DNA of 64,000 bases from an uncultured Candidatus Saccharibacteria bacterium (GCA_964629235.1 CAZVQB010000002.1:4339-68338); one strand, 5' to 3'; positions 545 to 44,986 are shown, numbered from the stretch's first letter. Notes: generated by a model not told the origin, from the letters alone. Numbers and translations: made by a program.

Positions 545-547
545 GTG

Positions 548-23109: not shown

Positions 23110-24396
23110 TTATTTAAAGTTATTTTTATCTTCAGCTTTTTTAAATAATGCTAGTACAATACTTACATATTTTACAAGGAGGATAATAGAAGTTACCCAA
23201 AATAAGCCAAAACCTATACCTGCTAGAACATCTGATAGCCAATGAACCCCTAAATACACCCTGCTGAATGCTGTAAGAATTATAGACAATACACACAATA
23301 CAACCAATATTTCTCTAATTACCATTGATTTTATCTTTGTAATAAAGAAATATATAAGTAATGTAAAGAAGATTGTTGCTGCCACCGCGTGACCGCTTGG
23401 AAAACTATATCCCTTTACGATCAAAAATGCATTTTCTGGTCTGATTCTTATAACTATATTTTTAATAATGAAAGTAAATATATAACCACCGCCTAGAGAA
23501 AATATTGAGATTAGAGAATAATAGTAATTTCTTTTATAAATCAAATACAGAATCAAAAAGAAACTAATACCTGTTATAAAAGTTGGACTAAATATATTGG
23601 TTATCACATACATCAAATCTCGAAATACTTCGCTTGAATGATTAAAAAAGAAATCATTTACAAAAATATCTAATTCGAGTAAAAAAACCTTATCAGTTAT
23701 AGCGTCTTGTAATGTTTTAAAAAATAAATATAGCCCAAATAGGTTAAAACCTAAAGTTAAGAGTTCGTATTTTGCAAAAATATGAAACTGCTTGTTAATA
23801 AACCGATACCCCCAAACAATAAAGAATCCTAGAATAATTGCGAATAAAATGTATTTTCCTAACAATGTCGATACTGTGTGGTAACTAGCACCAAATATAT
23901 ATCCCACTAATATAGACATCGTTGCCCAAATAAATACCCCAATAGAATCAAATATCCAAAACTTTTTTGTATGAGTACCACTAGCACCAACCAAAAACGG
24001 TGAGAGGGTTCTTGTAATAGGACTGAATCGACCAAGTATTATTGCTTTTGCAGTATTTTCTTTAACTAACAACAATGCTTTATCAATAAATTCCCTTTTA
24101 AGAAAAAAATATTGTCCAAATCTTGTGAGAAGTGATATTCCGTATTTTTTTCCCAAATAAAAACCTATGATATCACCAATTATTGCTCCGAGCATTACAA
24201 TTATAAAAACCTTGTATATATTTAATACTTCAATTTTTGCTAGCAAACCAGATATTATAACGATACTATGTCCAGGTATAAATTGACCAAATATAGGTAT
24301 TCCTTCAGATATAGTTGAGATTAAAATAAAGAGATAACCTCCATGCTCCACTATTGCCTGTAAGTTGTGAGAAATAAGAGAAAATATACTAGACAT
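23110..24396 (-). CDS. Fusion membrane protein: N-terminal DedA/SNARE-associated domain + C-terminal PAP2 (undecaprenyl-pyrophosphate phosphatase-like) domain
   Basis: The N-terminal ~190 aa show the DedA pattern (GxxxPGxSIVI, GRFSPITRT). The C-terminus has the PAP2 motifs KxxxxxxRP (KNIVIRIRPEN), PSGH (SFPSGHAVA) and SRxxxxxHxxxD (SRVYLGVHWLSD). Confidence 0.7.
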   Translation of the reverse strand: MSSIFSLISHNLQAIVEHGGYLFILISTISEGIPIFGQFIPGHSIVIISGLLAKIEVLNIYKVFIIVMLGAIIGDIIGFYLGKKYGISLLTRFGQYFFLKREFIDKALLLVKENTAKAIILGRFSPITRTLSPFLVGASGTHTKKFWIFDSIGVFIWATMSILVGYIFGASYHTVSTLLGKYILFAIILGFFIVWGYRFINKQFHIFAKYELLTLGFNLFGLYLFFKTLQDAITDKVFLLELDIFVNDFFFNHSSEVFRDLMYVITNIFSPTFITGISFFLILYLIYKRNYYYSLISIFSLGGGYIFTFIIKNIVIRIRPENAFLIVKGYSFPSGHAVAATIFFTLLIYFFITKIKSMVIREILVVLCVLSIILTAFSRVYLGVHWLSDVLAGIGFGLFWVTSIILLVKYVSIVLALFKKAEDKNNFK

Positions 24397-24526: not shown

Positions 24527-25195
24527 ATGAAAATCCTGATTATTGAAGATGATGTAGATATTTCCAGTTTTATAAAAGACAATCTAACTGAAAGTACTTA
24601 TTCCGTAGAAGTCGCAAAGGATGGACCTGATGGATCATTCTTAGCTAGAACAAACTTTTACGATGTCATAATTATGGATTATTCCCTACCATCAAAAGAT
24701 GGTGTTCTAGTATGTGAGGAGATACGTGCTTCTGGCGTCGAAACACCCATAATCTTTTTAACAGTTCATCAAGATATAAAGAAGAAAGTCAAAGCTTTAG
24801 AAAAAGGTGCGGATGACTATATGACCAAACCTTTTTCTATTGAAGAATTAAAAGCAAGAATAAAAGCTTTAGCGCGTAGGCCAAGAAAAATTGAAAGCCC
24901 AATTTTAATAGTAGATGATTTAATCCTAGATACACACAAAAGAACAGTAAAAAGAGGCGAAACGTCTATTTATCTAACGAGAAAAACATATGATCTATTG
25001 GAATACCTTATGAGGAATAAAGGTATTGTACTTTCAAGAGGTTCTATAATGGAATATGTATGGAATTCTGATAGTGACCCATTTTCAAATACTATAGAAG
25101 CACATATACTAAACCTGAGAAAGAAAATAAATGTGAAGGGTAAAAAGGATATACTAAAGAATATTCCAGGAAGAGGTTATATTATGGGGTCCTAA
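24527..25195 (+). CDS. OmpR-family two-component response regulator (receiver + winged-helix); no histidine kinase adjacent
   Basis: MKILIIEDD, the phospho-acceptor context VIIMDYSLP, MTKPF, and a C-terminal trans_reg_C-like wHTH (NTIEAHILNLRKKI). Confidence 0.85.
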   Translation: MKILIIEDDVDISSFIKDNLTESTYSVEVAKDGPDGSFLARTNFYDVIIMDYSLPSKDGVLVCEEIRASGVETPIIFLTVHQDIKKKVKALEKGADDYMTKPFSIEELKARIKALARRPRKIESPILIVDDLILDTHKRTVKRGETSIYLTRKTYDLLEYLMRNKGIVLSRGSIMEYVWNSDSDPFSNTIEAHILNLRKKINVKGKKDILKNIPGRGYIMGS

Positions 25196-27428
25196 ATTTA
25201 CCTTCTTGTATTTGCTTAATAGCGTCATCAACCTGAGATTTTATAAGCGGGAATCTTTCTTTTGCTTTTTTTAACAATTCAATAGCCTGATATTCTTGCT
25301 TATTTAATAGATAAGTATAAGCTAGAGATGAATACACTTCTTGATTATCTGGATCTTTTGCTAATATCTTTTTGTATATTTCGATAGCTTTATCATATTG
25401 TTTTGACAATACATAAGCGTTTATAACTCTTGGATCACTAAATACCTCGAGATCATCTCCAAAAATTTTCTTTGCTTTTGCTTCTTCACCTGCTGTTATT
25501 AGAGCTGTAACATAAGTAGTCTTGGCTATTGGATTATCTGTTGATGATTGATATGCTTTATCCAATATCTCAACCGCCTCCTTATTTTTACCAATATTTA
25601 AATAATTAACAGCAAGTTCAAATATTATACTTTGTTTATTTGGAGAAAGTTCATTTGCTTTTTCAAGTAATGGGGTGGCAGTATTGAAATCTCTAATAGC
25701 GTTATAATAACTTCCACCAATTATGTATATTCTAGCGTCTTTCGGTGTACTCTTTATTTGATTTTCGATTTCCTTTTTTGCCAAATCATAGAATGCTGCC
25801 TTTTTATCTTGTTGAATCTGTGGGTCTTGTATTACATTAGCAGAACAGTTCAACAATTGCTCAACAGCCTCTTGGTTTGCAACTGTTTGACCAAGTTTAA
25901 ATACTTTTTCAAACGGCACCACAGATACAGTTTGAGGATTTGAACAAGCAATTAGCGCTCCGATTAATCTTGTATTCGCTTGTATAGGTCGGACATTTAC
26001 AAAATACATTGATGCAACAAATAGAATCACTACAATAGGTACATACACATAATCTCTTATTGTTTCAGCATCTTCAGATATTGATTTGCTGTAATTTTCA
26101 AATATAGACAAATCCTTATTCTTTCTTAGTGAATGAACAAAAGCGAGTAATGTGAAGAACATTATATAACTTGTTTGATTGTCGAATACGAACACATTAT
26201 GTATTGCATATCCAACTAGTAGACCGATTAGTATTGACTTTTCTCCAATCGTCTTTTCACTCTTAATAATAAAAATTAGGGAGATTAAATATAGCGCAAG
26301 ATATGCAAGTAATCCTAATATTCCTCCAGCAACAAACCAGTCTAAGAAAACACTGTGTGCTCGATCAAACCACTGTTCATGCTTCCACATTTCTGGATTG
26401 TAGTGTGAATTGAATATGTAGTTAAAATTTTCTTGCCCAACTCCGATAATTGCTGTCTTTGGACTCTCAACAACCCCCTTTATTGCCATAGGCCAGATAA
26501 ATCTTCTTGCTTGGGTCTTTGTATCTGAAATTGATATTGAAGCCAATCTTCCTAGTACTTCATTCTTTTGAATCCAGTTGGCATTTCTATTGAAGTAGAA
26601 TAATACACCGACAACAATCACAAAGATAATAATTGAACCTGAAAATATTCTACTTTTATTTGATTGACCATTATTCTTTCTACCAAAAATTGTATAAATA
26701 GCACAAGAAACAATGATTGCAATTGTCCAACCTATAATAGTTCCTCGAGTTGCTGTCTGAAACATTATAAAAGAGAAAAATGCCGCAGCAATAGAGTATG
26801 AATAGAACAAATGTTTCTTTGCAAAATAACTTATTGCTAGGTATGCAGAAATAAAAGCATTGAACAACATATAAACAGCCATATATGCAGAGTTACCTAG
26901 TGATGCATCAACTCTTCCTCCTTGGTGTGTTTCTGCCCAACCAAAAAATTGTGTTAAACCATAAAGTGCTGTTATCAAACCTGAAATAATTACAACATTG
27001 AAAAATTTGTGCCAACTTTCTTTTGTTTTTAAGACCGAAGACAAAACCATGAAATAACCCCAAAGGTGGACTATCATGAGCCAACCTTCCATTCTCTCAA
27101 AGTTTGACCAGATACTTCTCAGTGGATTTAATCCAGCGAGATCAGCAATCAAAGCAATGAAAGCAAATATACCTATAGAAACAGAGATCGCATTACACTT
27201 TGGAAGAACACTTTTATCTGTTCCAACAATACTTGTACCTTTTTCTCTGAAGATAAGGATTAGCCACAGAGCAAAAACAATTTCAACAATTATTCTAAAA
27301 GCAAACCCTTTACCTGTTATAAATGGAAAAAATAAAGAATTAACAACGTAAGTTGGAATAAATGGAATTACTGCTAAACCGATAATAATTGCGTATTTAA
27401 TTAAAGTATTTATTGTTGAATTGTTCAT
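25182..27428 (-). CDS. O-antigen ligase-like (Wzy_C) polytopic membrane protein with C-terminal TPR repeats
   Basis: The 748-aa ORF has about 12 TM helices and a clear Wzy_C signature, FDRAHSVFLDWFVAGGILGLLAY (H-N/S-x-x-L...GIIG). The C-terminal ~280 aa are TPR-like repeats. Confidence 0.7.
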   Translation of the reverse strand: MNNSTINTLIKYAIIIGLAVIPFIPTYVVNSLFFPFITGKGFAFRIIVEIVFALWLILIFREKGTSIVGTDKSVLPKCNAISVSIGIFAFIALIADLAGLNPLRSIWSNFERMEGWLMIVHLWGYFMVLSSVLKTKESWHKFFNVVIISGLITALYGLTQFFGWAETHQGGRVDASLGNSAYMAVYMLFNAFISAYLAISYFAKKHLFYSYSIAAAFFSFIMFQTATRGTIIGWTIAIIVSCAIYTIFGRKNNGQSNKSRIFSGSIIIFVIVVGVLFYFNRNANWIQKNEVLGRLASISISDTKTQARRFIWPMAIKGVVESPKTAIIGVGQENFNYIFNSHYNPEMWKHEQWFDRAHSVFLDWFVAGGILGLLAYLALYLISLIFIIKSEKTIGEKSILIGLLVGYAIHNVFVFDNQTSYIMFFTLLAFVHSLRKNKDLSIFENYSKSISEDAETIRDYVYVPIVVILFVASMYFVNVRPIQANTRLIGALIACSNPQTVSVVPFEKVFKLGQTVANQEAVEQLLNCSANVIQDPQIQQDKKAAFYDLAKKEIENQIKSTPKDARIYIIGGSYYNAIRDFNTATPLLEKANELSPNKQSIIFELAVNYLNIGKNKEAVEILDKAYQSSTDNPIAKTTYVTALITAGEEAKAKKIFGDDLEVFSDPRVINAYVLSKQYDKAIEIYKKILAKDPDNQEVYSSLAYTYLLNKQEYQAIELLKKAKERFPLIKSQVDDAIKQIQEGKFRTP

Positions 27429-28425: not shown

Positions 28426-30306
28426 CTAAAACTTAAATCCTTTTTTCTTTAATTCCTTCAGCATATATTCTGCTATAATCCAATCGAGTGGATAATCAAT
28501 ATCTACCGATCTATCCTTAGGTACAATATATCCTGCGACCTTATCTCCATAAAGCTTATTTTCTTTCATAATTAAATCCCTTCTCATAGAGTATATTGCT
28601 GCACTTCTCTTATACGCTACAGGCAGATCTTGTCTTCTTGTACCCTCTACTTCTGGAACTGAATATGCACTAATGAAATCTCCTTCGAGTTTTTTAATTT
28701 TAATTGGATTCACATTACTTGGAACTTCAACTATTGATACAGCACTATCTGCTTTTGTATCTATAAGTTTTTGAATTGTTCCATCGATATCATCTATAGT
28801 TCTAAATGGTGAAGTTGGTTGAAGTATAACTACATAATCGATAGTAATATTATTTTTCTTTTCATAAAAATCAATTGCATGTTGCATTACCGGAAGATGT
28901 GGAGTTCCATCTTGAGCCAATTCTTTTGGTCTCATAAAAGGTACATCTGCTCCGTACTTCTTACATACATCAGCAATTTCTTTGTCATCTGTTGAAACAA
29001 TAAGATGATTTATCAATTTGCTCTTCTTTGCAGCATCGATTGTATAAGCAATAAGAGGTTTATTGCCAAGTTTCTTTATATTCTTACCCGGAATGCCTTT
29101 TGATCCTCCGCGAGCGGTTATAACACCAAGGACATTTGGAGTTCTATATTCCCTATCAACATGTTCTTCTGTAAGTGGTTCGAATTTCTTAATATCTTTT
29201 ATTATTTTTTTATCCAAAATATCATGAAAAAAATTTGAAAAAATTCCATTTAGATGAAGTCTTGGTCTCATAGCATAGACCATATCACTGGTGATTATAG
29301 TTCCAGCTTTAATATCTCTTGATGCAACAAGTGTTTTATTGAAATAAGGTCTAAACTTATTTTGTGCACCTTCCAATTCTTTTTCCTTTTGACCATAGAA
29401 AATATTTGTATCTATTTTCTTATATTCATTTTTCTTAATACCAGAGACTAGTTGTTTCATTTCTTCTGGAGTAACTGAAGCTTTATGATCTGAACCCCAA
29501 AGACCTCGATCTAGAGAAAAATGTTTTTCTATAACCTGTGCACCCATTTTTACTGCAGCTAAAGGAATAGTATTGTCTCCAACTGAATGATCAGAAAAAC
29601 CAATGATTGCATGAGGATATTTTTCTTTAAAATATTCTATAGTAGAAAGATTAAATGCTTCTGGAGGACATGGATATTCACTAACGCAATATAGAATAAT
29701 AATTGGTGACCCACGCTTTGTAATATAGTTGACAACGTCATCCAATTCCTTGTGACTAACCATTCCTGTTGAAATGATTATTGGTTTTTGCGTTTTCGTT
29801 AAAAAATCCAAAAGAACATGATCCTGAACATCTCCAGAACCTACTTTCCAAAAAGGTACATCTAGATTTTCAAGTTTAACCGCTGCCATTCTAGACATCG
29901 GAGTTGAGAAGAATATAATTCCTTTTTTTTCTGAATATCTTTTTATTTCTTTGAAAAATTCTATAGGTGCTTCTTCTGTATTTCTTTTAACCCAAGAATA
30001 TCTATCACTACCTTTAAAGTGCGGAGAAACGACATTTATATTTGCTTGTTCATCTTCAACCTCATGAGTTTGAAACTTCACAGCATGTGCACCTGCTTTT
30101 ACTGCTTCATCAATAAGCTTTTTTGCATTCTTAATATAGACTTTTAGAGGTTGAGATTCTTGTGTTTGTATAAAATTCTTACCGATTTCAGCAATAACAA
30201 AAACTTTATCCTTTGATATGATTTTAGAGATAGCGTGAGGCTTCACTATTTTTGAATTTTTATTCTTGCCGGCTTTATAGGATTTAACAGGCTTTTTTAT
30301 TTTCAT
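28426..30306 (-). CDS. Bifunctional nonulosonic (sialic-acid-like) acid synthase NeuB domain fused to CMP-nonulosonate cytidylyltransferase NeuA domain
   Basis: The N-terminal ~360 aa match NeuB (VIAEIGKNF, TIM barrel, C-terminal SAF-like segment). The C-terminal ~230 aa match acylneuraminate cytidylyltransferase (VLGVITARGGSKGIPGKNIKKLGNKPLIAYTIDAA). Confidence 0.8.
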   Translation of the reverse strand: MKIKKPVKSYKAGKNKNSKIVKPHAISKIISKDKVFVIAEIGKNFIQTQESQPLKVYIKNAKKLIDEAVKAGAHAVKFQTHEVEDEQANINVVSPHFKGSDRYSWVKRNTEEAPIEFFKEIKRYSEKKGIIFFSTPMSRMAAVKLENLDVPFWKVGSGDVQDHVLLDFLTKTQKPIIISTGMVSHKELDDVVNYITKRGSPIIILYCVSEYPCPPEAFNLSTIEYFKEKYPHAIIGFSDHSVGDNTIPLAAVKMGAQVIEKHFSLDRGLWGSDHKASVTPEEMKQLVSGIKKNEYKKIDTNIFYGQKEKELEGAQNKFRPYFNKTLVASRDIKAGTIITSDMVYAMRPRLHLNGIFSNFFHDILDKKIIKDIKKFEPLTEEHVDREYRTPNVLGVITARGGSKGIPGKNIKKLGNKPLIAYTIDAAKKSKLINHLIVSTDDKEIADVCKKYGADVPFMRPKELAQDGTPHLPVMQHAIDFYEKKNNITIDYVVILQPTSPFRTIDDIDGTIQKLIDTKADSAVSIVEVPSNVNPIKIKKLEGDFISAYSVPEVEGTRRQDLPVAYKRSAAIYSMRRDLIMKENKLYGDKVAGYIVPKDRSVDIDYPLDWIIAEYMLKELKKKGFKF

Positions 30307-31360: not shown

Positions 31361-31390
31361 AATCCTCATGGAAACATGAGGATTTTTTAT
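31361..31390 (+). terminator. Rho-independent terminator of the DMT transporter gene, overlapping the neuC stop codon
   Basis: AATCCTCATG-GAAA-CATGAGGATT followed by TTTTTAT. Confidence 0.6.
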
Positions 31391-32544
31391 TCAACAAATG
31401 TCTTTTGAGTATAAAGAGGTACAGTAGCAATAACTTCTGCGATCTTTTTACTTGTACTTTCTGAAAAATATAATTTTGATGATTCGTATCTACCCTTTTT
31501 GACTTGTTTCTGTATAGCCTTTTTTATTTCTTCTACATTATGATCAACAGTAATAACATTTTCTGCACTCAATCTCTTGAATTGTCTATTTCCAATATTT
31601 ACAACAGGTAAACCCATAAAAGAAGACTCTTTTATTCCAGCTGAAGAATTCCCTATCAAACATAGACTGTTGTTTAACAACCAAATAAAATCCTTTGGAC
31701 CCATATAACGCATAAAGCGTATTTTATGTCCTTTAACTTCATCCTTAAATATTCTAAGTTCATGTGATATATCTTCTGCACCCGCATCAGCATTTGGCCA
31801 AAACCAGAGTGTTGGAATCTTTAGACTATGTACTGCATCAAGTATCTTTTTTGTATTTTCATGTACATGTTTAACATCCATAATATCAGGATGATACATT
31901 ACCATCAGATATCCTTTACTGAGATCGAACATCGCTCCACTTCCAGTAGTATTTAAATCAAATTTATGTTTTTTGCTTGATAATTTCTTTACCACTTCAA
32001 TTTCTGGACTACCGAAATTAAAAACGTGTGAGTCTTTTTCTCCTAGTCTCAATACTCTTTTCCTTGCTGGCTCATTTGTTGTAAAGTGAATATGAGAAAG
32101 CTTCGTGATAGCGTGTCTTACACTTTCATCTATTGATCCAGATACATCACCACCTTCTATATGTGCTATTGGAATAGATAAATATGCAGCAGCAATTGTA
32201 GCTGACAGAACTTCAAATCTATCACCTCTTACCACAACAACATCAGGTTTAATCTGATTAAAAAGTGTAGTAAATTCTATTATTCCAAGTCCTGTCGTTT
32301 TTGCTTTTACGATTGTGTCATTACCTTCTAGATTAAAATGAAGTTCATATAACTTATCATATCCATCATCAGTTAATAACTTTTTAATATCTGCAAGTTT
32401 AGATGTATAGCGAGACAATAGAGCTGTACCGCCAACTACTATATGTAGGTCAATATCTTTTCTTTTCTTTAGTTCTTCTAGAATAAGAAAGTTACGACTG
32501 TAGTGTATAAAACTTGTAATAACGAAACAGACTTTTCTCTTCAT
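31387..32544 (-). CDS. neuC: UDP-N-acetylglucosamine 2-epimerase (NeuC/WecB family; hydrolysing type likely)
   Basis: The 385-aa ORF starts MKRKVCFVITSF and carries VVRGDRFEVLSATIAAAYLSIPIAHIEGGDVSG, the epimerase_2 signature. Confidence 0.8.
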   Translation of the reverse strand: MKRKVCFVITSFIHYSRNFLILEELKKRKDIDLHIVVGGTALLSRYTSKLADIKKLLTDDGYDKLYELHFNLEGNDTIVKAKTTGLGIIEFTTLFNQIKPDVVVVRGDRFEVLSATIAAAYLSIPIAHIEGGDVSGSIDESVRHAITKLSHIHFTTNEPARKRVLRLGEKDSHVFNFGSPEIEVVKKLSSKKHKFDLNTTGSGAMFDLSKGYLMVMYHPDIMDVKHVHENTKKILDAVHSLKIPTLWFWPNADAGAEDISHELRIFKDEVKGHKIRFMRYMGPKDFIWLLNNSLCLIGNSSAGIKESSFMGLPVVNIGNRQFKRLSAENVITVDHNVEEIKKAIQKQVKKGRYESSKLYFSESTSKKIAEVIATVPLYTQKTFVE

Positions 32545-33532: not shown

Positions 33533-34891
33533 TTATTTAATTAAATTAATTATATAATCTGCAATTCTTTTCCCTGATAGACCGTCTGTAAATGTTGTCT
33601 GTTCTTTTACCAGGTTCTCTCTTTCTTTACTCTTTACTGATGGATCATCTAAATATTTATTTATTGAATCTAATAACTCTTGTCTATTATTTACCAAATC
33701 AACAGCATTAGTCTTTAATACATTCTTATAATGCCAAGTTCTGTAGTATTGTACAGGAGATTTTAACAATTTTGGAATTTTATTTATTTCAAAATTTATA
33801 TTTATTACTGGTTTGTCAAAAATACTTGCATCAATACTAATACTTGAAGCATAACAAACCAAGACAGACATATGATAAAGAGTATCCTGTAAATGATCTA
33901 GATCTGCTTTATTCATATCCCAATCAACACCTCTTTTTGTACCAAAACGTATACCGGGTTTATCACATTTTAGATCTGGTCTCTTTGATATTTCTTCTTC
34001 ATCAACAAAATCATTTGGTTGGAATCTTACCAACAATTCACATTCATATTTCAATTCTTTTGAGTAAATCATTTCTTGTAATAGGTCGATTATATCCCAA
34101 TCAGCAGAACTAAATGCTCTACCCATCGGAGCATATACTATCAATTTTTTATCACTAGGAATTTTTATTTTATTAAAGAATTCTTCTCTTAGAATAGGTT
34201 TCCTTGTATAGAAAAAATCATATTGTGGTAAACCACTAACAAAAATATCTTGTTCATTCATTTCATTAAAATCCATCATCTCTCCTTTGACGATATCGTT
34301 AAAAACTATAGCTTTATCAGGCAATAATCTTAAAATACATCTTGAAGTAACCTTATCCCAAGAGTTTATATAACCTATTGTTTTTATTTTTCTCTTTTTT
34401 GCTTCTCTTAATAGATTGATTTCAATTTCTTCAAATAGATGGGCGGTAAAAACAAGATCTGGTGAATATTTATCAAAATACTCACTATATGTATTGTCTT
34501 TTATTAAAAGAAAATCCAAATATCTCACAATTTTTCTTATCAAAGACCAAGCAAGAATATAGTTCGATACTTTACCAAAATAGTATCCAAAAAATCTCCC
34601 TTCATAATCACTGACCATTTTTCGTTTTAAATTTGTAGTTTCAGTTCTAAGTAAAGTGAACTTCATCTTTGAGAAAAAACTATCGAACATTGGTATGGAT
34701 TTTTGTTCAACAAATTCAAATACTATTCTTGGATCATTGAATTCATTTTTATAATAATCTACTTTTTGTTGCGATTTTGTAAAAAGAACAATTCTTATAT
34801 CTTTATTAAAAAGAAGATTCTCTAAAATAGGTGTTCGTAGAATATTCTTTACTTCTACACCTTCAAAAATTGTTATAAATATTGTTTTCAT
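33533..34891 (-). CDS. Putative TagB/TagF-like (CDP-glycerol glycerophosphotransferase family-like) polymer transferase, paralog 1
   Basis: The 452-aa ORF has a C-terminal half with the R-x-(Q/H)-P and YASSISIDASIFDKPVININ pattern, similar to the TagF HP / TDYSS motifs. One of three paralogs. Confidence 0.4.
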   Translation of the reverse strand: MKTIFITIFEGVEVKNILRTPILENLLFNKDIRIVLFTKSQQKVDYYKNEFNDPRIVFEFVEQKSIPMFDSFFSKMKFTLLRTETTNLKRKMVSDYEGRFFGYYFGKVSNYILAWSLIRKIVRYLDFLLIKDNTYSEYFDKYSPDLVFTAHLFEEIEINLLREAKKRKIKTIGYINSWDKVTSRCILRLLPDKAIVFNDIVKGEMMDFNEMNEQDIFVSGLPQYDFFYTRKPILREEFFNKIKIPSDKKLIVYAPMGRAFSSADWDIIDLLQEMIYSKELKYECELLVRFQPNDFVDEEEISKRPDLKCDKPGIRFGTKRGVDWDMNKADLDHLQDTLYHMSVLVCYASSISIDASIFDKPVININFEINKIPKLLKSPVQYYRTWHYKNVLKTNAVDLVNNRQELLDSINKYLDDPSVKSKERENLVKEQTTFTDGLSGKRIADYIINLIK

Positions 34892-36216
34892 TTATTTATC
34901 AAATCTAATATTGCATTGAAAAGCCTTTCGGTATTTTTACCATCCAAAAATCCTGCCTCCATCTCAGCTAATTTCTTTCTTTTATCTTTATCTAGACTAG
35001 GATTTTTAACATACTCATCTAAATAATCTTTGAATTGCCGCATAGATTCAGCAAGCTTCACTCCCCCACTTTCTATTACTGGAATAAAATTATTATAATC
35101 GTAATATCTTCTTATACTATCGAAATATTCTCTCTTCTCATATCCATCAAAACCAAAAAGAATTATAGGCTTATTCATATATGCTGAATCAAGAACAAAA
35201 GTTGATGGTGAACTGATAACTAACTCTGACCAGAATAGGGTTTCAGCCAAATGCACATCGTCATTTTTATCGATTTCTGTAATCTTGATATTATCGAACT
35301 TTGGTTTTGCTCTATCATATATAACCTTTAGATTTGGAAATTTTGGATTATTCTCTAATTCTCTAACATAATCTCCTGGTGGAAGCCTGACTAGAAGTTG
35401 ATAATCTTTTGGTAAAGTCTTATCCAAAATATCTACAATATCTCTATCAACTGTATTATTTCTCAAATATCGATCACCTAACGGTATGAAGAGTGCTAAC
35501 TTTTTATCCTGATCACCACCTATTTTTTCTATAAATTCTTTTCTATTTGTAAACACATTTTTCTTATAATCATCATAGTGTGGAATTCCAATAACAGATA
35601 TCATTGATTCTCTTATTTCTTGAAGACATATCGCTTCATCTTTAATGATATTATTCCATACTAACAATTTATTAGGTATAACTCTTATGAGACCTTTTGA
35701 AGTAAGGTTGTCCCAAGAACGAACCATTCCTGCAGTTTTAATATTCGAAAAAATACCCTCATTCAATATTGCAATATCAAGTTCACTTTGGATATCGGTA
35801 GAAAATATGCAATCAGGTTTATACTGATCAAATAATTTCTCAAATCTTTTATTTTTATAACTTACTCTTTCTAGAAATCTTACGAATTTATGACCTATTT
35901 TATTTGATAATAAATAAGTTAAATACATTCCGCTACCTTTCATTTCTGTCTTTCTTTTTATATAAAGCGTTTTCGTATTTAATGCTGTTAGTGAAAGATA
36001 CTTTAATAGATTTTCTCTCTTGGTATTTTTAAATTCGAATCCTTCAACAATAACGTCATCTCTCTCAAAATTTTCTTTAAAAAAACTTTCTTTATTTTTT
36101 GGAGCAATTATTACAACTTTTATATTATTTTTAACAAGTACATCCAGGATTCCAGATGAAAGAATATTTCTTGATATGAGTGGATGAAAACTAGTTATAA
36201 AAATTGTCTTTTTCAT
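34888..36216 (-). CDS. Putative TagB/TagF-like polymer transferase, paralog 2
   Basis: The 442-aa ORF starts MKKTIFITSF and carries LVRLPPGDY...ISSPSTFVLDSAYMNKPIILF. Confidence 0.4.
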   Translation of the reverse strand: MKKTIFITSFHPLISRNILSSGILDVLVKNNIKVVIIAPKNKESFFKENFERDDVIVEGFEFKNTKRENLLKYLSLTALNTKTLYIKRKTEMKGSGMYLTYLLSNKIGHKFVRFLERVSYKNKRFEKLFDQYKPDCIFSTDIQSELDIAILNEGIFSNIKTAGMVRSWDNLTSKGLIRVIPNKLLVWNNIIKDEAICLQEIRESMISVIGIPHYDDYKKNVFTNRKEFIEKIGGDQDKKLALFIPLGDRYLRNNTVDRDIVDILDKTLPKDYQLLVRLPPGDYVRELENNPKFPNLKVIYDRAKPKFDNIKITEIDKNDDVHLAETLFWSELVISSPSTFVLDSAYMNKPIILFGFDGYEKREYFDSIRRYYDYNNFIPVIESGGVKLAESMRQFKDYLDEYVKNPSLDKDKRKKLAEMEAGFLDGKNTERLFNAILDLINK

Positions 36217-37163
36217 TATCTTTTAAGGAATTGCTGCAGACGTACAGTAAGTAAATATCTTAAATAAATATAATATTTGTTTATTGATAATAAAGTAAAA
36301 ATATAATTACCTTTACCTATTGTTAAATCCTTAAAAGGAGTTTTATTCAATCTTTTGGCCACAATGCGAATATGCACTCTTGGAATTCCTTGCATGATCT
36401 TCTTCTTTGTATATTCATCAGCTTCAAAGAAAAGGATTTCAAATCCAGCTGACGTTATAAAATCTCTCAGAACTTCAGGCGTATACATATAGACATGGTC
36501 AATCTTTACACTATTTTCATACTTTCCTGCTTTTTGTAATTGTTGCCTGAAATTCATAACTTCAACAACAAGAAGTCCATCATCAAAAAGAGATTCATGT
36601 GCCCATTTGAAAAAGTATCTCGGATCCAAATAGTGATTAAGAGCTTGAGTACTAACTATAACTGCAAATTTTTCTTTTTTATTATGATCTTCGATTAAAG
36701 CATGATAAGTCTTTATTCCTTGAGAATTCGCATAATCCGATTCTACCTTTGACGGCTCAAGACCTATTACTTCTCTATTTAAATATACTTTCATTCCTTT
36801 CAAAACACCTCCGACTCCAGAGCCAACTTCCATTATATTTCCTTTTACTTTTAGATATGGTGATATAAGCTCGCCCAAAAATTTGCCATGTCCTATAGTC
36901 GATTCAAATAATCTCTTGCAATCAAAATCTGAACCTGCCTCGCCATTGTTTATAGTCTTTTGTCTGTATTCTTCTTCATAATAGAATTTATAACCAGACT
37001 TCGTCATTCTCGGATTTATATATATAAGACCACACTTTTTACAAATAACAGAGTTTAAAGCTAGACCATCTGTACCCTTTTTTGACAGGATTTTATAATT
37101 GTTACTTAAACAGAAACTGCAAACAATATTCTCCTTTTCAATTGTATTGTATGGGAAAGACAT
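36216..37163 (-). CDS. Class I SAM-dependent methyltransferase with N-terminal Cys4 zinc-ribbon (copy 2)
   Basis: CSFCLS...CKKCGLIYINPR zinc ribbon, then MEVGSGVGG. Paralog of 32548-33531. Confidence 0.7.
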   Translation of the reverse strand: MSFPYNTIEKENIVCSFCLSNNYKILSKKGTDGLALNSVICKKCGLIYINPRMTKSGYKFYYEEEYRQKTINNGEAGSDFDCKRLFESTIGHGKFLGELISPYLKVKGNIMEVGSGVGGVLKGMKVYLNREVIGLEPSKVESDYANSQGIKTYHALIEDHNKKEKFAVIVSTQALNHYLDPRYFFKWAHESLFDDGLLVVEVMNFRQQLQKAGKYENSVKIDHVYMYTPEVLRDFITSAGFEILFFEADEYTKKKIMQGIPRVHIRIVAKRLNKTPFKDLTIGKGNYIFTLLSINKYYIYLRYLLTVRLQQFLKR

Positions 37164-37224
37164 TTTATGATAAACAAGTATATCACAACAAAATATTGCT
37201 TCAATTTTAAAAATTAATAAAAGA

Positions 37225-38619
37225 CTAGATAATTTTTTCTAAAAAATCTACATTTCTCTTATAAGACAAACCGTCTCTAAAGAAAATAAAATCATTGAAT
37301 ACTTTTTCTTGTTGCTTCTTTTTTACATCGTGATTTTTCAAACAAATATTAACATGTTCAACGATATTATCGAAACTCTTTGAGAGGAAAACTGCATCAG
37401 CATCAACAATTGGCTTATAGTGACGGAAATTGTATGCTCTATGATACTTTTCTGGATAATCTATATTTACAACTGGTTTTCCAAAGATAAAAGATTCGAG
37501 GGTCATTGTTGAAACGTAGTTTATAACTACATCAGAATATTTTAGAGTTAACTTTAGATTCAAAATATCATCCTCATGTATTTCAATTCTCGTACCCATT
37601 TCTTGTGAAAGCAATTTGCCCGGATATTCAACATGTAGATTTGGTATTTTACTATCAATATATACTTTAAATTTATCAAACTCCTCTTTTGGATGCATTC
37701 GCACTAGAATATTTGGTTTACCATCAAATTTGCCTTGATCACGAGCTTTCAATAGTTCTCCAAGAAGAATATCTTCATCAGGATAATTCCCTTTTGTAAC
37801 TGTAGTTATAAGTATAGTTTTTTCTTTTGGATTTAATCCTTTACTCAAAAGGAAAGTTTCTCTTGAGAGTTCACTTGGATTATTTACAGAATAAGAATCA
37901 AAACGCATTGTACCTGAGACAAATACATTGTTTTCTGAATATCCATATTCTTTTACTGCAGTATTTTTTATTATTTTATTCCAAACTATTAGATAATCTG
38001 GTCTTCTAAAATGCACGCCTCCATTATGAAGATTGTCCCAACTAAAATTTATCGCTGCAGTCTTTATACCAAATTTCTTTGCATATATTATTGCTTCAGC
38101 ATCAGGATGACTGAATCCTGGAGTTGCTGTTAGAAACATTACTGGTTTGTATTCTTTAATCTTTTCTTCAAGGGCTTTTGATCTTGGTATAAAAATTTTC
38201 TCTAGTTTAGTAAATAAATCATTTGTCCAAAAAGATGCAGGGGCAATATAAGAAAAATACTTTAAAAATCTTCTTCTCCAATCTTTCATACCCTTTTCTT
38301 TATTCCTAACTACCACCGGTTCAAAATCGTATTTACGGATTATTGAATACCTAAAATATTTACCAAATAGATTCCAAAATCCTGGATTTTGCAATTTCCA
38401 AGGAACATAAGTCACATTTTCTGATTTAAAATATGGCTTATTGTCTTCACAAAAAGCTTGTGGAGACATGAATACCACTACTTTGTATTTTGTTGATAAA
38501 TACTTTATATAATCTGTACGTAAAAAATCCGATGAGTAAACAAAGTTAGAAATAAAAAGAAATACTGTTTTCATAGAAAGGTATTGTAGCATATATGTTA
38601 TAATCGTTATTATTACCAC
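37225..38619 (-). CDS. Putative TagB/TagF-like polymer transferase, paralog 3
   Basis: The 464-aa ORF carries ILVRMHPKE...INYVSTMTLESFIFGKPVVNI. Confidence 0.4.
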   Translation of the reverse strand: MVIITIITYMLQYLSMKTVFLFISNFVYSSDFLRTDYIKYLSTKYKVVVFMSPQAFCEDNKPYFKSENVTYVPWKLQNPGFWNLFGKYFRYSIIRKYDFEPVVVRNKEKGMKDWRRRFLKYFSYIAPASFWTNDLFTKLEKIFIPRSKALEEKIKEYKPVMFLTATPGFSHPDAEAIIYAKKFGIKTAAINFSWDNLHNGGVHFRRPDYLIVWNKIIKNTAVKEYGYSENNVFVSGTMRFDSYSVNNPSELSRETFLLSKGLNPKEKTILITTVTKGNYPDEDILLGELLKARDQGKFDGKPNILVRMHPKEEFDKFKVYIDSKIPNLHVEYPGKLLSQEMGTRIEIHEDDILNLKLTLKYSDVVINYVSTMTLESFIFGKPVVNIDYPEKYHRAYNFRHYKPIVDADAVFLSKSFDNIVEHVNICLKNHDVKKKQQEKVFNDFIFFRDGLSYKRNVDFLEKII

Positions 38620-39738
38620 ATGAAAAAACCTATTCTGCTACTCTGGATAATTTCATCATGGATTCTCTATCCCTTTTTTAGTCTATCTTCAAAAATTAAG
38701 AGCAAAAAACTAGGTGAGAAAAAGAGAGTGCTTGTATTGCCACAACTTTCTAGAATTGGAGATATCGTCTGTTCTACTGGTGTATTTTATAATATTAAAA
38801 AATCATATCCTGATAGTTATGTATCTGTATTAGTATCGAAAAAAGCATTTGGAATTATAAAAAACAACAAAAGAATTGATAATTTTATTATTTATGAAGA
38901 CTATTCATTTTTTGGTTTAATAAATAAAATTAAATCAGAAAATTTCAACTATTCAATAAACCTTACAGCAACATCCATAAATACTTGTTTAACTCTTTGG
39001 AGTTGTATAAATCATAGAATCAAGACTGTAGTAGAAACTCCTCCAATTACAGAAAGACTTACTGATTGTATGTCGAATCATCGATTACTATACAGGAATC
39101 ATACATATTTACCACTTCACCATATAAAGTTGTTGAATTTCATTGGAATAAATAATCCTGAGGATAAAAAAGAAATATACCTAAGTGGTACAGCGGAAAT
39201 AAAGGCAAATGATTTTGTTAAAAACTTTGGAGAAAATAAAAAAATAATAGGAATAAGCATAACTGCAGGAAATAAAATAAAGGAACTTGGTGATGAAAGA
39301 TTTGAAAAATTAATCAATAAACTTTTAGAAAATCAGGATAACATAGTTTGCTGTATAGGATCTAAAAATGACTCAGAAAGGATTGATAAAATAATATCCA
39401 GCGTGAATAATCCTCGTTTCATTAAAGCAACTGATTTTAATTTGGAAGAATTACCATCTCTTATGAAAACATTCTCGCTTTATATTGCGGTTGATACTGG
39501 TCCTATTTATATTGCGCATGCCCTAGGAATACCTCTGATAGACATAATTGGTCCAGTAGATCCGAATGAACAACCACCAAAAGACAGTAAGAGTATACAA
39601 ATTCTTCCTAGAGGAGATATAAAACCTAGTTCATTTGTATTTAAGAAACGTGGAACTAAAGATGAAATTATTTCAGCAATACGAAATACTGATATAAATG
39701 ATATTTATAAAGCCGCAGTAATACTATTGAGTAAGTAG
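38620..39738 (+). CDS. Glycosyltransferase family 9 (LPS heptosyltransferase-like)
   Basis: The C-terminal motif DTGPIYIAHALGIPLIDIIGPVDP matches the GT9 D-S/T-G-P-x-H-L-A...G-P-T signature. Confidence 0.7.
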   Translation: MKKPILLLWIISSWILYPFFSLSSKIKSKKLGEKKRVLVLPQLSRIGDIVCSTGVFYNIKKSYPDSYVSVLVSKKAFGIIKNNKRIDNFIIYEDYSFFGLINKIKSENFNYSINLTATSINTCLTLWSCINHRIKTVVETPPITERLTDCMSNHRLLYRNHTYLPLHHIKLLNFIGINNPEDKKEIYLSGTAEIKANDFVKNFGENKKIIGISITAGNKIKELGDERFEKLINKLLENQDNIVCCIGSKNDSERIDKIISSVNNPRFIKATDFNLEELPSLMKTFSLYIAVDTGPIYIAHALGIPLIDIIGPVDPNEQPPKDSKSIQILPRGDIKPSSFVFKKRGTKDEIISAIRNTDINDIYKAAVILLSK

Positions 39739-41112
39739 ACCGTATCTAACAAACCAACCTCGTACTATTGATATACCCTTTCGAATAATAATTTTATCTT
39801 CTTCTTTAAAACCAAAAATGATCTTGAAATCGAAATGGAATCCTTTGTCCTGATTTTTCGTATATATATAGTTTGCAATAACCATAATTAAAGGCACAAG
39901 TACGAATTCAAGAGCCAAACCCCAAAGACCAATGAAAGGTAGTGTTGAGACAATAATTCCAAGTGCAAGACTATTTCTAAATAAATGTAAAAAGAAAAGG
40001 TACTTTTGCTTTCTTAATGCTATGAGATAGTTGCCTATTATTATTCCCGCCGCAAATATTGGTAAATTTAAAAGCATAAAATAGAATAGCGGTATTGATT
40101 GTTCGTATTTCGAGAAGAAAGTATATATAATCGGTGGAACTGCAATAATTGCTGATATAACCACCAATATACTTCCAAGTACAAAATATTTTATTCCATA
40201 AGAAAACATTTTAACTGATAAATGTTTATCTTTTATCCAAAGTGGAACAAGTGATTGCATGGTATTACTTGGCATTAAATCTTGAATTGTAGTAACAATA
40301 GTCTCAGCAATAGAATATATAGCTACCGCTTCAGTATTTATAAAGAATTTAACTAACCAAGGCTTAACTCTAAAAGTTATTTTATTTATAAATTGTCGAA
40401 GCACATCCCATGTTCCGTATGTTACGAAAATATTCCACAACAATACATTTGGAGTGACTGCTATATGACTCCATTTGAAATAAACTTTAAAGAATTGATA
40501 TGAAACCGCCAAAACACTGAGTGATGAAGCGATTATTATAGATAGTATCAATTGTTTCAAACCGAGATTGCCTTGTAAGAAATAATAAATAAGTACAATA
40601 GATTGAATAGCTTTATTTATAGTATATCTCTGAGCAACTACTGAAAACTTCAATCGGACTAGACATAGTAATCGTATAAGGACGAACAGCCCTTCACTCA
40701 ATATCACAAAAGAAATCATTCTCATATCTTTTACGAAATCGATATCGTAAGATTTAAAAATATAAACCGAACCAAAGAATATTATTGCCCAAGCAGTGAA
40801 AGTTATAACTATTCTAACCAAAGAATATTCTAAGAAAATTCTCTTTGCATCACTAAGTCTATTGTCAGCGATTGCTCGAGACATTTCATTTGAAATAATA
40901 GCTGAACCAAGATTCAAAACATCAGATGGTACACCTGAAAAAGAAAGTAGGAGTTGGAATACACCGTACTGATACAAAGTAAGTGATGTAATAGTTAAGA
41001 ATGTATTCAATAGACCTATTACTTTTGTTACAAGATTCCAAAAGGTTGAAACGGCTTCCCCTTTTAAGAAAATAGCCATAAATGACGGCTTTTTTTGAGT
41101 GTTTGTATCCAT
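39724..41112 (-). CDS. Wzx-like oligosaccharide/polysaccharide flippase (MOP superfamily)
   Basis: The 462-aa ORF has 12-14 TM helices and overall Polysacc_synt organisation. Confidence 0.55.
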   Translation of the reverse strand: MDTNTQKKPSFMAIFLKGEAVSTFWNLVTKVIGLLNTFLTITSLTLYQYGVFQLLLSFSGVPSDVLNLGSAIISNEMSRAIADNRLSDAKRIFLEYSLVRIVITFTAWAIIFFGSVYIFKSYDIDFVKDMRMISFVILSEGLFVLIRLLCLVRLKFSVVAQRYTINKAIQSIVLIYYFLQGNLGLKQLILSIIIASSLSVLAVSYQFFKVYFKWSHIAVTPNVLLWNIFVTYGTWDVLRQFINKITFRVKPWLVKFFINTEAVAIYSIAETIVTTIQDLMPSNTMQSLVPLWIKDKHLSVKMFSYGIKYFVLGSILVVISAIIAVPPIIYTFFSKYEQSIPLFYFMLLNLPIFAAGIIIGNYLIALRKQKYLFFLHLFRNSLALGIIVSTLPFIGLWGLALEFVLVPLIMVIANYIYTKNQDKGFHFDFKIIFGFKEEDKIIIRKGISIVRGWFVRYGLLTQ

Positions 41113-41171: not shown

Positions 41172-42560
41172 ATGAAAAATATATCCAAAAAGGCATTCAT
41201 TATCATATTTTTAATAATCGTATCCGTAAATTTCCTTTATTCTATATCATACAAGATAAAACCAGCTGTAGATGCTGAAGCATACGATGAAATTGCTACA
41301 AATATAGTTGAGCATGAACAATATAGATCAAGCTTCAATGTACCTATAGAACTTGATGGTTCAATAACAAGAATCGGTCCTGGGTATGAATTGTTCTTAG
41401 CAACAAATTATTTATTCTTTGGTAAACATCTTTGGATTATTTGGTTATTCCAAGCAATACTCTATGCTTTGACTATCGTAATGCTTGGTTTGATGAGTCT
41501 AAAGTTATTCCCTGTAATAAATCAAAATACAAAGATCCTTTATGGTTCAATGATTGTTTTTGGCTTACTCATCGATATAATTCAATTGAATGCAATGATA
41601 ATGACTGAATCCCTTTTCCTATTTCTTTTAACTCTTTCTTTCTTTATTTGGTCACAGATCTACAATCACGATCCGAAAATAAAATATGGATTATGGATCA
41701 TTCTAGGATTTGTCTTAGGATTATTAACCCTTACTCGTCCTACTGGATTATTAGTATTTATACTATTAAGTGGAGCAACAATATACAGAAAAAAGCTTGG
41801 TTCAATACTTGCTATATGTCTTATTACTATTCCATTTATCTTAATCCAAGTTCCTTGGTTTATAAGAAATTATCATGTTTATAATCAATTTATTTTTCAC
41901 TCTAGCGCTGATGGTCTGAATTTCTTAAGTGGCAACTATCCTGGCAATCATGGAGAATTTACTTCTGATTTTCCTTTTTATAAAGAATTAAAAGAGAAAT
42001 ACCCATCTCCAGTAGAATTAAATAATGAAGCAAAAAAATGGTATAAAGATTTTGTATTACATCACCCTATTCAAGCTACAAAAATACTAATTGAAAAAGC
42101 TTTAATATTCTTTTCTCTTACCAAGACTTCTGGTTTTTGGTTCCATTATTTTGGAAAGACTGATCAGATACTTACAATCCTCATATCAATACTACAAAAC
42201 TTTATAATACTTGGAAGTATTATATTGTATGGGACAATGGTTGTTAAAAGATGGATAAATAAACAATTCCTTCTACCAGACATATTTCTTGCTTCAACTT
42301 TTGTAGTATTGACCGTAACTCCAATAATTTCAGTTATAGCAAATAGACATAGACTTCCACTAGTTATAATGTCTCTGCCTTTATTCGCCTATGTTGCATA
42401 TATATTAAAAAATAACTTCAGAAAAATGAAATGGGAAATTGCTATTACGATTCTTATCCTTATCGCAAGTACTAGTCTAGATCTATTCTTACAATTCGAT
42501 AAATTCAAATCAAAAATACATTCAGTAAATAAAAGTCCAGTGGAAACAGTAACTAAATAA
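41172..42560 (+). CDS. GT-C fold membrane glycosyltransferase (ArnT/PMT-like, family 39/83-like)
   Basis: Polytopic membrane protein. The first extracytoplasmic loop holds the acidic motif AVDAEAYDEIA, similar to the GT-C DE/DxD loop-1 motif. Confidence 0.5.
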   Translation: MKNISKKAFIIIFLIIVSVNFLYSISYKIKPAVDAEAYDEIATNIVEHEQYRSSFNVPIELDGSITRIGPGYELFLATNYLFFGKHLWIIWLFQAILYALTIVMLGLMSLKLFPVINQNTKILYGSMIVFGLLIDIIQLNAMIMTESLFLFLLTLSFFIWSQIYNHDPKIKYGLWIILGFVLGLLTLTRPTGLLVFILLSGATIYRKKLGSILAICLITIPFILIQVPWFIRNYHVYNQFIFHSSADGLNFLSGNYPGNHGEFTSDFPFYKELKEKYPSPVELNNEAKKWYKDFVLHHPIQATKILIEKALIFFSLTKTSGFWFHYFGKTDQILTILISILQNFIILGSIILYGTMVVKRWINKQFLLPDIFLASTFVVLTVTPIISVIANRHRLPLVIMSLPLFAYVAYILKNNFRKMKWEIAITILILIASTSLDLFLQFDKFKSKIHSVNKSPVETVTK

Positions 42561-44222: not shown

Positions 44223-44986
44223 TGAAAATCACGATAATAATACCAACATACAATGAAGGTGAAGCAATCGGTAACTTACTCGATGCAGTTATTGCTGAAA
44301 CAAAAGAAATAAAGAATCATATATTTTCTATTCTTATCGTTGATGGGAATTCAAAAGACAATACTCAAGAGAATGTAAAAAACAAATCAAATAAATACAA
44401 CAATATAAAACTAATAGTTGAAAAAAATAAAAGTGGTCTTGGGAACGCATATTTAGAAGGAATGAATTATGCAATAAACAATCTTGGTGCGGATGCTTTC
44501 ATGGAATTTGATGGTGATTTCCAACACAATCCAAAAGATATAAAGAAGTTGGTGGAAAAACTAGATCAGGGATATGAATATATAATCGGATCAAGATATA
44601 TAAAAGGAGGAACTATCCCTAGGGAATGGCCTTGGTATAGAAAAGCTATTAGTTCATTCGGAAATATTGTAATAAGTGTAGGATTAAGACTTGGAATAAA
44701 TGACGCAACTTCAGGATTCAAACTATCGACGGTTGATAAATTTAAAGACTCGATGCCATTAAAACAAGGACAATTGATCTCTCTTCGACATGCATATAAG
44801 ATTCATTTTCTTTATAATATGATAAAAGCTGGAGCAAAAACAGTAGAGGTACCTATAGAATTCTTAAATCGGAATAAAGGAATATCAAAAAGTACCTTCG
44901 AAGATATAATAGAATCACTAAGAGTTGTTTTCGTTTTGATTATTAAGGGTGGGAATAATCGCATTGTTTTTAAAAATAAACCTTGA
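44222..44986 (+). CDS. GT2 polyprenyl-phosphate sugar synthase (Dpm1/ArnC/GtrB-like)
   Basis: ITIIIPTYNEGEAIGNLL, DGNSKDNT, DGDFQHNPKDI and the C-terminal amphipathic/TM segment are typical of Dol-P/Und-P-sugar synthases. Confidence 0.8.
   Translation: MKITIIIPTYNEGEAIGNLLDAVIAETKEIKNHIFSILIVDGNSKDNTQENVKNKSNKYNNIKLIVEKNKSGLGNAYLEGMNYAINNLGADAFMEFDGDFQHNPKDIKKLVEKLDQGYEYIIGSRYIKGGTIPREWPWYRKAISSFGNIVISVGLRLGINDATSGFKLSTVDKFKDSMPLKQGQLISLRHAYKIHFLYNMIKAGAKTVEVPIEFLNRNKGISKSTFEDIIESLRVVFVLIIKGGNNRIVFKNKP

Follow-up and report, generated by a model that had tools for sequence, protein, structure and literature searches.

A conserved Wzy_C-TPR membrane protein beside hypervariable glycan clusters of Patescibacteria, a candidate terminal glycan ligase or oligosaccharyltransferase

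The window analysed here is a stretch of 64,000 nucleotides (G+C content 32%) from an uncultured Candidatus Saccharibacteria bacterium (GCA_964629235.1 CAZVQB010000002.1:4339-68338). Positions 25182-27428 of its minus strand hold an open reading frame (ORF) with an ATG start encoding a 748-aa membrane protein, the target of this analysis, in which a Wzy_C domain is fused to tetratricopeptide repeats (TPR). Public metagenome-assembled genomes (MAGs) contain an identical protein, and close members of its sequence cluster carry the automatic name 'O-antigen ligase / TPR repeat protein'. On its 5' side lies a glycan-biosynthesis island of about 26 kb (27464-53679), the putative source of a donor glycan. 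On the 3' side, the gene of an OmpR-type response regulator (24527-25195, plus strand) runs convergently to the target, the two sharing 14 nt at the 3' end of the target. An earlier note on this DNA placed the target at the head of the glycan island; it does border the island, but as the last, 3'-most co-directional gene at its edge.

The Pfam family Wzy_C matches residues 214-377 of the target (26298-26789; all features of this gene are on the minus strand) with 61.4 bits (E 1e-16, cutoff 31.7), and the membrane domains of the target and three orthologues score 62.5-89.4 bits. No other Pfam family was detected in the target membrane domain by hmmscan, even at E<=10. TPR_19 matches the target with 72.6 bits, and many further TPR models align with residues ~535-727. 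These matches, together with the signature RAHSVFLDWFVAGGILG at residues 356-372 (26313-26363), which contains the invariant R356, H358 and D363, bear out the earlier description of a Wzy_C protein with fused TPRs. The soluble C-terminal TPR region is present as proposed, but it measures 264 aa (residues 485-748, 25185-25976) rather than about 280. It follows a membrane domain (residues 1-484, 25977-27428) for which 13 transmembrane (TM) helices are predicted from the structural models, in agreement with the distribution of positive charges.

The AlphaFold2 model of the full-length protein, built with 43 homologues, was confident (predicted local distance difference test (pLDDT) 89.2, predicted template modelling score (pTM) 0.85), as was the model of the membrane domain (pLDDT 85.9, pTM 0.89). 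Foldseek searches of the PDB with the full-length model retrieved only TPR proteins. With the membrane domain, the best match was the ligase WaaL (7tpg_B; E 1.4e-4, probability 1.00, template modelling score 0.60 on the WaaL length). This structure was the sole PDB match at E<=0.001, the next being FtsW (8p1u_A) at E 1e-2. Sequence searches of the PDB with the full protein, the membrane domain or a 26-sequence family profile retrieved TPR proteins or noise and no WaaL. The relationship with WaaL is therefore distant and rests on the Pfam match, the fold match and the alignment of individual residues.

In the comparison of the family profile with Escherichia coli K-12 WaaL, similarity was weak overall (hhalign probability 11%, E 0.0028), and its register places R215, R288 and H338 of WaaL exactly on R228, R308 and H358 of the target. 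Judged by these profile comparisons, which include the absence of any WaaL among the PDB hits, the protein does not group with bona fide WaaL, in line with what the earlier note had proposed. R228 (codon 26745-26747), within a TATRG motif, and H358 (26355-26357) are conserved in 100% of 53 orthologues with identities down to ~35%, and R308 (26505-26507) in 98%. The three counterparts are essential in E. coli WaaL (PMC3643930; for their roles see also PMC10920833), in which H338 is the proposed acceptor-activating base, at a position where polymerases of the same clan carry Asp or Glu (PMC10920833). No part of the protein is better conserved than the large extracytoplasmic catalytic loop between TM9 and TM10 (residues 280-359, 26352-26591), whose top-residue frequency averages 0.675 over 53 sequences. 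Identity within the TM domain is about 50% among relatives whose donor clusters change completely. With the Pfam match, the GT-C(B) fold and the Arg/Arg/His set, the target is a member of the Wzy_C/GT121 superfamily.

WaaL has 12 TM helices (PMC10920833). The helices of the AlphaFold2 model give the target 13. If the N-terminus is placed inside, Lys and Arg account for 13 of 58 residues in short inside loops and for 3 of 53 in short outside loops. All invariant polar motifs, NPLRSIWSNFERMEGW, HQGGRVDASLGN, TATRG, GxGQENFNY and FDRAH, are found in the outside loops. TM12 is followed by a 19-residue cytoplasmic linker that is rich in Lys and Arg and poorly conserved. The additional 13th TM helix (residues ~452-484, 25977-26075) belongs to a single 44-residue helix (452-495) that spans the membrane and runs on into the TPR stack. 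This stack, a continuous series of helical hairpins at residues 504-741, matches consensus TPR proteins and the TPR domain of OGT in Foldseek searches. Cys495 (25944-25946) and Cys528 (25845-25847) are both present in 35 of 53 sequences, both absent in 18 and never found singly, a co-variation that suggests a disulfide bond just outside TM13 and would fit an outside location. Considering the 13 TM helices, the positive-inside rule and the Cys pair, which co-varies in all 53 sequences, we predict that the TPR domain lies outside the cytoplasm. It would thus not be cytoplasmic, the location that would have spoken against the earlier proposal of a protein-glycosylating enzyme.

Six residues of the TPR domain (E520, E523, P562, R566, A591 and Y639) are each conserved in at least 98% of the 53 sequences. 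Because the domain is under purifying selection, with E520, E523, R566 and Y639 invariant while the donor clusters vary, it presumably binds something conserved rather than the variable glycan.

The family is large. More than 3,800 relatives of the target were counted at 90% clustering, and among the best 120 relatives listed nearly all are ~720-780 aa long with Wzy_C and TPR domains, the exceptions being shorter proteins on short contigs. A phmmer search with the membrane domain against 1.84 billion representatives returned 6,141 matches at E<=1e-3, of which 1,793 reach E<=1e-30; almost all of the top 150 are 700-860 aa long. In a scan with one genome per species, at least 528 species-level genomes carried the family. 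Of the best 80 loci, 79 have titles of Patescibacteria type or of unclassified MAGs, the exception being a MAG contig labelled Nitrospira sp. (L080). The Patescibacteria/Paceibacteria titles include Taylor-, Zambryski- and Campbellbacteria, and some records are labelled Saccharibacteria. One of these 80 loci comes from a complete genome of 752 kb (CP011215.1). In the literature searched, we found no publication describing this Wzy_C-TPR family of the Candidate Phyla Radiation (CPR). As for the envelope of the hosts, ultra-small bacteria of the Parcubacteria/Paceibacteria lineage, a study of Parcubacteria genomes reported that genes for lipid A and lipopolysaccharide (LPS) are absent and called envelope formation and structure 'unclear' (PMC5220378). 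No lpx, waa or kds genes are present within the 64-kb window.

The island next to the target encodes a 2-hydroxyacid dehydrogenase, a fusion of NeuB with a cytidylyltransferase, a NeuC-type epimerase, three BFO_1060/TagF-like glycosyltransferases (GTs), methyltransferases, a GT9, a Wzx-type flippase (39724-41112, minus strand; Pfam Polysacc_synt), a GT2, a GtrA, a PMT_2-like GT-C and several GT4s. Four orthologous loci inspected singly have four 5' glycan clusters, three of which are unrelated in the genes they contain: one has a nonulosonic-acid set like that of the window, one combines Wzx with GT10/GT11 fucosyltransferases, one Wzx with GT17/GT92, and one Wzm/Wzt with GT2s. This pattern extends to a census of neighbours in 52 other genomes. 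The immediate 5' neighbour of the orthologue is an exporter or flippase in 30 of them (18 with Wzx, 8 with a permease of the ATP-binding cassette (ABC)-2 type and 4 with a fused ABC exporter). Among the following two 5' genes there are 12 ABC ATPases, nine of which contain the glycan-binding domain Wzt_C, and six more Wzx, as well as GT2s, GT4s, FkbM methyltransferases and sugar-nucleotide enzymes. The 3' side is of another kind: the two 3' genes include MurB in 27 and SecA in 24 of about 50 genomes, and glycan-related families are almost absent among the families listed, with two ABC-2 permeases. The murB-secA order is absent from the window and from the contig of orthologue P0037, both of which have a response regulator as the 3' neighbour. 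The target gene is a conserved fixture at the point where the core genome meets a hypervariable glycan locus.

Since a conserved gene borders hypervariable clusters that use both Wzx- and ABC-dependent routes, it is likely that the protein acts as a terminal ligase or oligosaccharyltransferase (OTase) for glycans linked to undecaprenyl diphosphate (Und-PP), with relaxed donor specificity. In the mechanism that we propose, the enzymes of the island would assemble the glycan on Und-PP at the cytoplasmic face, and Wzx would carry it outward, a step for which relatives would use Wzm/Wzt or a fused ABC exporter. By analogy with the chemistry of WaaL, R228 and R308 would hold the diphosphate of the carrier lipid and H358 would activate the acceptor hydroxyl, the whole glycan being transferred en bloc with release of Und-PP. 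The released carrier could be recycled by a protein encoded two genes from the target, in which a DedA/UptA-like undecaprenyl phosphate (Und-P) transporter is fused to a PAP2 phosphatase (23110-24396, minus strand; Pfam VTT_dom and PAP2). The same fusion is found in L001 (18016-19293), and its matches to the NCBIfam UptA, Und-PP phosphatase and SepP models are below their cutoffs. It would join two steps of carrier-lipid recycling, and its link to the target is putative. The 13th TM helix, which WaaL lacks, is predicted to bring the TPR superhelix of 264 aa to the outer side of the membrane, where it might dock acceptor proteins, for example those of the surface layer (S-layer), further surface proteins and possibly pilins. 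In that case the enzyme would function as a general O-OTase, in the manner of Paenibacillus WsfB or Neisseria PglL.

That the acceptor is a protein, as expected for a general O-OTase of the WsfB/PglL type, is something we only infer, and we give it an even chance. In its favour, a conserved TPR module predicted to lie outside is fused to essentially every family member. The union of Wzy_C with TPRs also has precedents among O-OTases, in WsfB and PglL (PMC2943079). Several observations weigh on the other side. No conserved candidate acceptor gene adjoins the target orthologues in the 52 loci, and PglL_A and Wzy_C_2 were undetected in the target and three orthologues (hmmscan, E<=10), although TfpO and TfpM also lack both domains (PMC12645811). 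TPR domains can scaffold enzyme complexes, as do those of polysaccharide export (PMC2943079). The conserved neighbours, murB for the target and murJ for a paralogue described below, hint at a connection with the cell wall. On the donor side, no initiating phosphoglycosyltransferase was recognised in the island of the window, and the linkage of the donor to Und-PP is one that we infer. Finally, the Wzy_C enzyme TacL of a monoderm uses a glycolipid as acceptor (PMC5727136) and, because TacL exists, a protein that is not a WaaL need not be an O-OTase. The earlier proposal of an O-OTase rather than an O-antigen ligase thus holds in its negative half, an LPS ligase being unsupported; its positive half does not gain the PglL_A and Wzy_C_2 domains, and a protein acceptor is only the best guess.

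TacL of Streptococcus pneumoniae, which joins teichoic acid carried on Und-PP to a glycolipid (PMC5727136), is also the model for the alternative that survives best. The target could be a lipoglycan ligase that transfers an Und-PP-linked polymer onto a glycolipid anchor in the membrane, yielding a product like lipoteichoic acid or another lipoglycan, with the TPR domain as a scaffold or chain-length gauge. Mechanistically this is the simplest transfer of WaaL chemistry to a cell without LPS, and all evidence on the donor side is equally compatible with it. Nevertheless, TacL has 397 aa and no ectodomain (PMC5727136), whereas in the target family a TPR domain and the 13th TM helix are nearly always present. 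To act on a lipid within its own membrane, an enzyme has no need of a protein-interaction module of 264 aa, and the invariant polar TPR residues suggest a specific macromolecular ligand. We therefore regard a TacL-like function as unlikely, if still a serious competitor.

A connection with the cell wall is raised by a second protein of the window. The ORF at 548-2992 on the minus strand (801 aa from the annotated start, 548-2953) has the same plan of multiple TM helices followed by TPRs, and the N-terminal part of MurJ is encoded immediately downstream (1-547, minus strand). The earlier note described it as a paralogue of the target co-oriented with murJ. It is a true, distant homologue, and murJ follows it directly, as in two other genomes, but it lacks all three catalytic residues. 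No Pfam Wzy_C match was detected in its membrane part at E<=10, and BLASTP aligned it with the target at E=0.001 only. Profile-profile comparison revealed homology over the whole length (probability 99.7%, E 7e-27, 708 aligned columns). In this alignment R228 corresponds to a gap, R308 to Thr and FDRAH to FGSGF. Among 31 aligned members of the paralogue family, none of the invariant positions in the membrane domain is an Arg, His, Asp or Glu; most are Gly, the others being K56, P336 and two Phe. Paralogue and active-enzyme families co-occur on contigs of 70,459, 66,610, 104,582 and 656,986 bp (matched by equal size), and a 256,750-bp contig also carries both. The order nrdAB-paralogue-murJ-lepA is conserved in L085 (8001-12091) and L086 (8001-12092), and in L085 the stop and start codons touch. 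From its sequence, the paralogue is best described as a probably catalytically degenerate relative linked to lipid II export, and it may be a pseudo-enzyme scaffold tied to that process.

The target could accordingly be a cell-wall glycopolymer ligase, which would join the glycan glycosidically to peptidoglycan or to nascent strands derived from lipid II while its TPR domain docks the peptidoglycan machinery. It would be a WaaL-type alternative to the LCP phosphotransferases. Consistent with this, murB lies 3' of the target in 27 of about 50 genomes, the gene of the degenerate paralogue shows stop/start coupling with that of the lipid II flippase MurJ in three of three genomes, and the fold is common to the peptidoglycan polymerase FtsW of the shape, elongation, division and sporulation (SEDS) family. 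The authors who described GT121 speculated about a role of its Gram-positive members in joining capsule to peptidoglycan (PMC10920833). On the other hand, the murB-secA synteny may merely reflect gene order kept in streamlined genomes, and it gives way to the response regulator in both the window and the contig of P0037. The link between paralogue and murJ, moreover, gives nothing direct on the active enzyme. We know of no WaaL-family enzyme with a peptidoglycan acceptor, and overall we consider this function improbable. Still more doubtful is its extension to a two-paralogue wall system without known counterpart, in which the active enzyme would ligate hypervariable glycans to the wall independently of LCP proteins and the dead, MurJ-coupled paralogue would serve as a TPR scaffold through which, in these minimal cells, the attachment of glycans is coupled to the export of lipid II.

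Some O-antigen polymerases also fall under Pfam Wzy_C, inverting polymerases belong to the fold clan (PMC10920833), and a Wzx flippase is present in the island of the window and in many orthologous loci. A Wzy-type polymerase would join flipped Und-PP repeat units, the TPR domain being a built-in co-polymerase or chain-length regulator. However, the target family has an invariant His where polymerases of the clan have Asp or Glu (PMC10920833), and its orthologues adjoin ABC-dependent clusters of the Wzm/Wzt(Wzt_C) type, whose glycans are polymerised in the cytoplasm and need no such enzyme. Wzy proteins co-vary with the repeat unit, whereas the target sequence is conserved across unrelated glycan clusters. 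In the window, the role could be held by an unassigned 10-TM protein of the island (41172-42560), which has no family match and might be its Wzy polymerase or another GT-C. A polymerase was rejected as the leading explanation on account of the invariant His358 and the ABC-dependent contexts, and we consider it very improbable. A classical WaaL that transfers O-antigen to the lipid A-core, which the automatic 'O-antigen ligase' annotations, the WaaL fold and the catalytic residues would favour, has practically no chance of being correct and was discarded on both architecture (13 TM helices and TPRs against a 12-TM protein of ~400 aa, with no PDB WaaL found by the family profile) and host biology (a clade reported to lack lipid A and LPS genes (PMC5220378), and no waa or lpx in the window).

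The preferred assignment, a terminal ligase or OTase with a protein as the candidate acceptor, can be set beside the characterised members of the superfamily. With WaaL (Cupriavidus metallidurans 7TPG, E. coli K-12; GT121) the target shares the fold, the Wzy_C domain and the Arg/Arg/His set. The target gene stands beside Wzx- or ABC-dependent clusters whose content varies, which points to a donor range as relaxed as that of WaaL. Unlike WaaL, which has both termini in the cytoplasm and no extra domain, the target has 748 aa and an additional TM helix leading to the TPRs. Its gene also lies outside any core-LPS operon, in a clade for which no lipid A-core acceptor is expected from the genome study (PMC5220378).

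A likeness by description exists with the S-layer protein glycosylation enzymes WsfB of Paenibacillus alvei and WsaB, with its partner WsaA, of Geobacillus stearothermophilus, which combine monoderm hosts, Wzy_C plus TPR and linkage to a glycan cluster. In WsfB and PglL, the Wzy_C domain is reported to be followed by a TPR motif at the C-terminus, and for WsaB the TPR protein, WsaA, is a separate one encoded by an adjacent gene (PMC2943079). The slg clusters use Wzm/Wzt with methyl-capped chains, or Wzx (PMC2943079), and the orthologous loci of CPR resemble them in having either Wzm/Wzt(Wzt_C) with an FkbM methyltransferase or Wzx. The target family thus shows the architecture and context of WsfB, with a fused TPR domain, an exporter or flippase on the 5' side in 30 of 52 loci and Wzt_C in nine further neighbours. 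No S-layer gene was identified in the window. Genetic evidence for WsfB was reportedly obtained by Zarschler et al. in 2010. A review calls both WsaB and WsfB 'predicted' O-OTases (PMC2943079).

The general and ComP-specific O-OTases PglL and PglS of Neisseria and Acinetobacter likewise have a Wzy_C core with conserved Arg/Arg/His (PMC3643930), and PglL resembles the target in its extracytoplasmic C-terminal region, for which a TPR motif has been reported (PMC2943079). PglL and PglS show extreme donor promiscuity, and the genes of general PglL enzymes, like the target gene, are not linked to a specific acceptor gene (PMC12645811). These enzymes are defined by the co-occurrence of Wzy_C with PglL_A (PF15864) and Wzy_C_2 (PF11846) (PMC12645811, PMC3643930), domains that were not detected in the target, and PglL hosts are diderm Proteobacteria. 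Residues G329 and G331 of a GxG motif, N179 and H410 of the target may resemble some 'PglL-only' residues, as judged by position. TfpO/PilO and TfpM are Wzy_C-family enzymes that resemble the target in lacking PglL_A and Wzy_C_2 (PMC12645811), but they are encoded beside their cognate pilin, whereas the target gene is ~30 kb from the pilin of the window. With TacL, the target has in common a monoderm Wzy_C enzyme moving an Und-PP-linked polymer to its final anchor outside; it differs in size, TPR ectodomain and, in the preferred assignment, in not using a glycolipid acceptor (PMC5727136). By the features compared, the target is outside the WaaL-proper, PglL/PglS, TfpO/TfpM and TacL groups. A similar design logic is found in TMTC1-4 and PMT_2-TPR proteins, polytopic transferases of lipid-linked sugars with a non-cytoplasmic (lumenal) TPR domain for protein substrates. 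These belong to another GT-C subclass, use monosaccharides linked to dolichyl phosphate or Und-P rather than Und-PP-oligosaccharides, and have no sequence relationship with the target.

The CPR/Patescibacteria represent a large share of bacterial diversity, live attached to or dependent on other cells, and have essentially uncharacterised envelopes. A conserved enzyme, with thousands of clusters and at least 528 species-level genomes, beside a hypervariable island is a genetic hallmark of a sugar coat that differs from strain to strain and that would be under diversifying selection, for example by phage or host recognition. The enzyme may be the single conserved gateway for the hypervariable surface glycans of CPR, and so offer one experimental handle on their surface glycome. 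Should it prove a promiscuous O-OTase, taking donors from Wzx as well as ABC routes, bioconjugate engineering could make use of it. Both the kind of enzyme, which would work like WaaL, PglL, WsfB and TacL, and its location are as expected, and its presence is only moderately surprising.

The earlier note had named the pilin at 57180-57659 (minus strand) as a substrate to be co-expressed with the target. This is a typical major type IVa pilin with Ala/Ser/Thr-rich stretches and the end ...YACPAS, in which Ser comes right after the disulfide-loop Cys. A C-terminal Ser is reminiscent of the targets of TfpO and TfpM (PMC12645811). The pilins of two related type IV pilus clusters end in ...CPAN and ...NATNC, so the terminal Ser is not conserved. 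The pilin gene is ~30 kb from the target and has a conserved, unrelated neighbour of its own, a 521-aa membrane protein with 8-10 TM helices (55560-57125, minus strand). No Pfam, NCBIfam or PDB match was found for this protein, which is unrelated to Wzy_C (hhalign probability 0.2%). It is conserved right after the major pilin in three other genomes (L088 6001-7566, L089 6001-7569 and L090 3001-4581), its setting being PilB-response regulator-PilT-PilC-pilin clusters of Patescibacteria; 18 relatives were found. The slot after the pilin is the position of tfpO/tfpW in Pseudomonas. Pilins are not enriched beside the target orthologues, with N_methyl in 2 of 95 downstream genes. A dedicated TfpO-like role towards the pilin, for which non-adjacency, the unrelated conserved neighbour and the variable C-terminus leave no support, was accordingly dropped. 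The pilin may be one substrate of a general O-OTase, and nothing singles it out.

Some further features of the region deserve mention. The island contains a nonulosonic-acid module that recurs on the contig of P0037, composed of a fusion that joins a NeuB-type synthase with a PseF/NeuA-type cytidylyltransferase, of a NeuC-type epimerase and of three paralogues in tandem (28426-30306, 31387-32544 and 33533-38619, all minus strand). The tandem paralogues have weak TagF-like matches, and the NCBIfam model for BFO_1060-family glycosyltransferases matches them below its cutoff; we take them to be possible nonulosonic-acid transferases. The PMT_2-like GT-C (42564-44222), the GT2 (44222-44986) and GtrA (44918-45349) form a typical three-component decoration module of the Und-P-sugar type. 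A VirD4/TraD/TrwB-like coupling ATPase is encoded (53684-55507, minus strand) in the interval that separates the glycan island from the type IV pilus cluster. A similar coupling ATPase is found near the pilin-adjacent ORF in L090 (6577-7581), and in L088 and L089 minor pilins and a prepilin peptidase occur instead.

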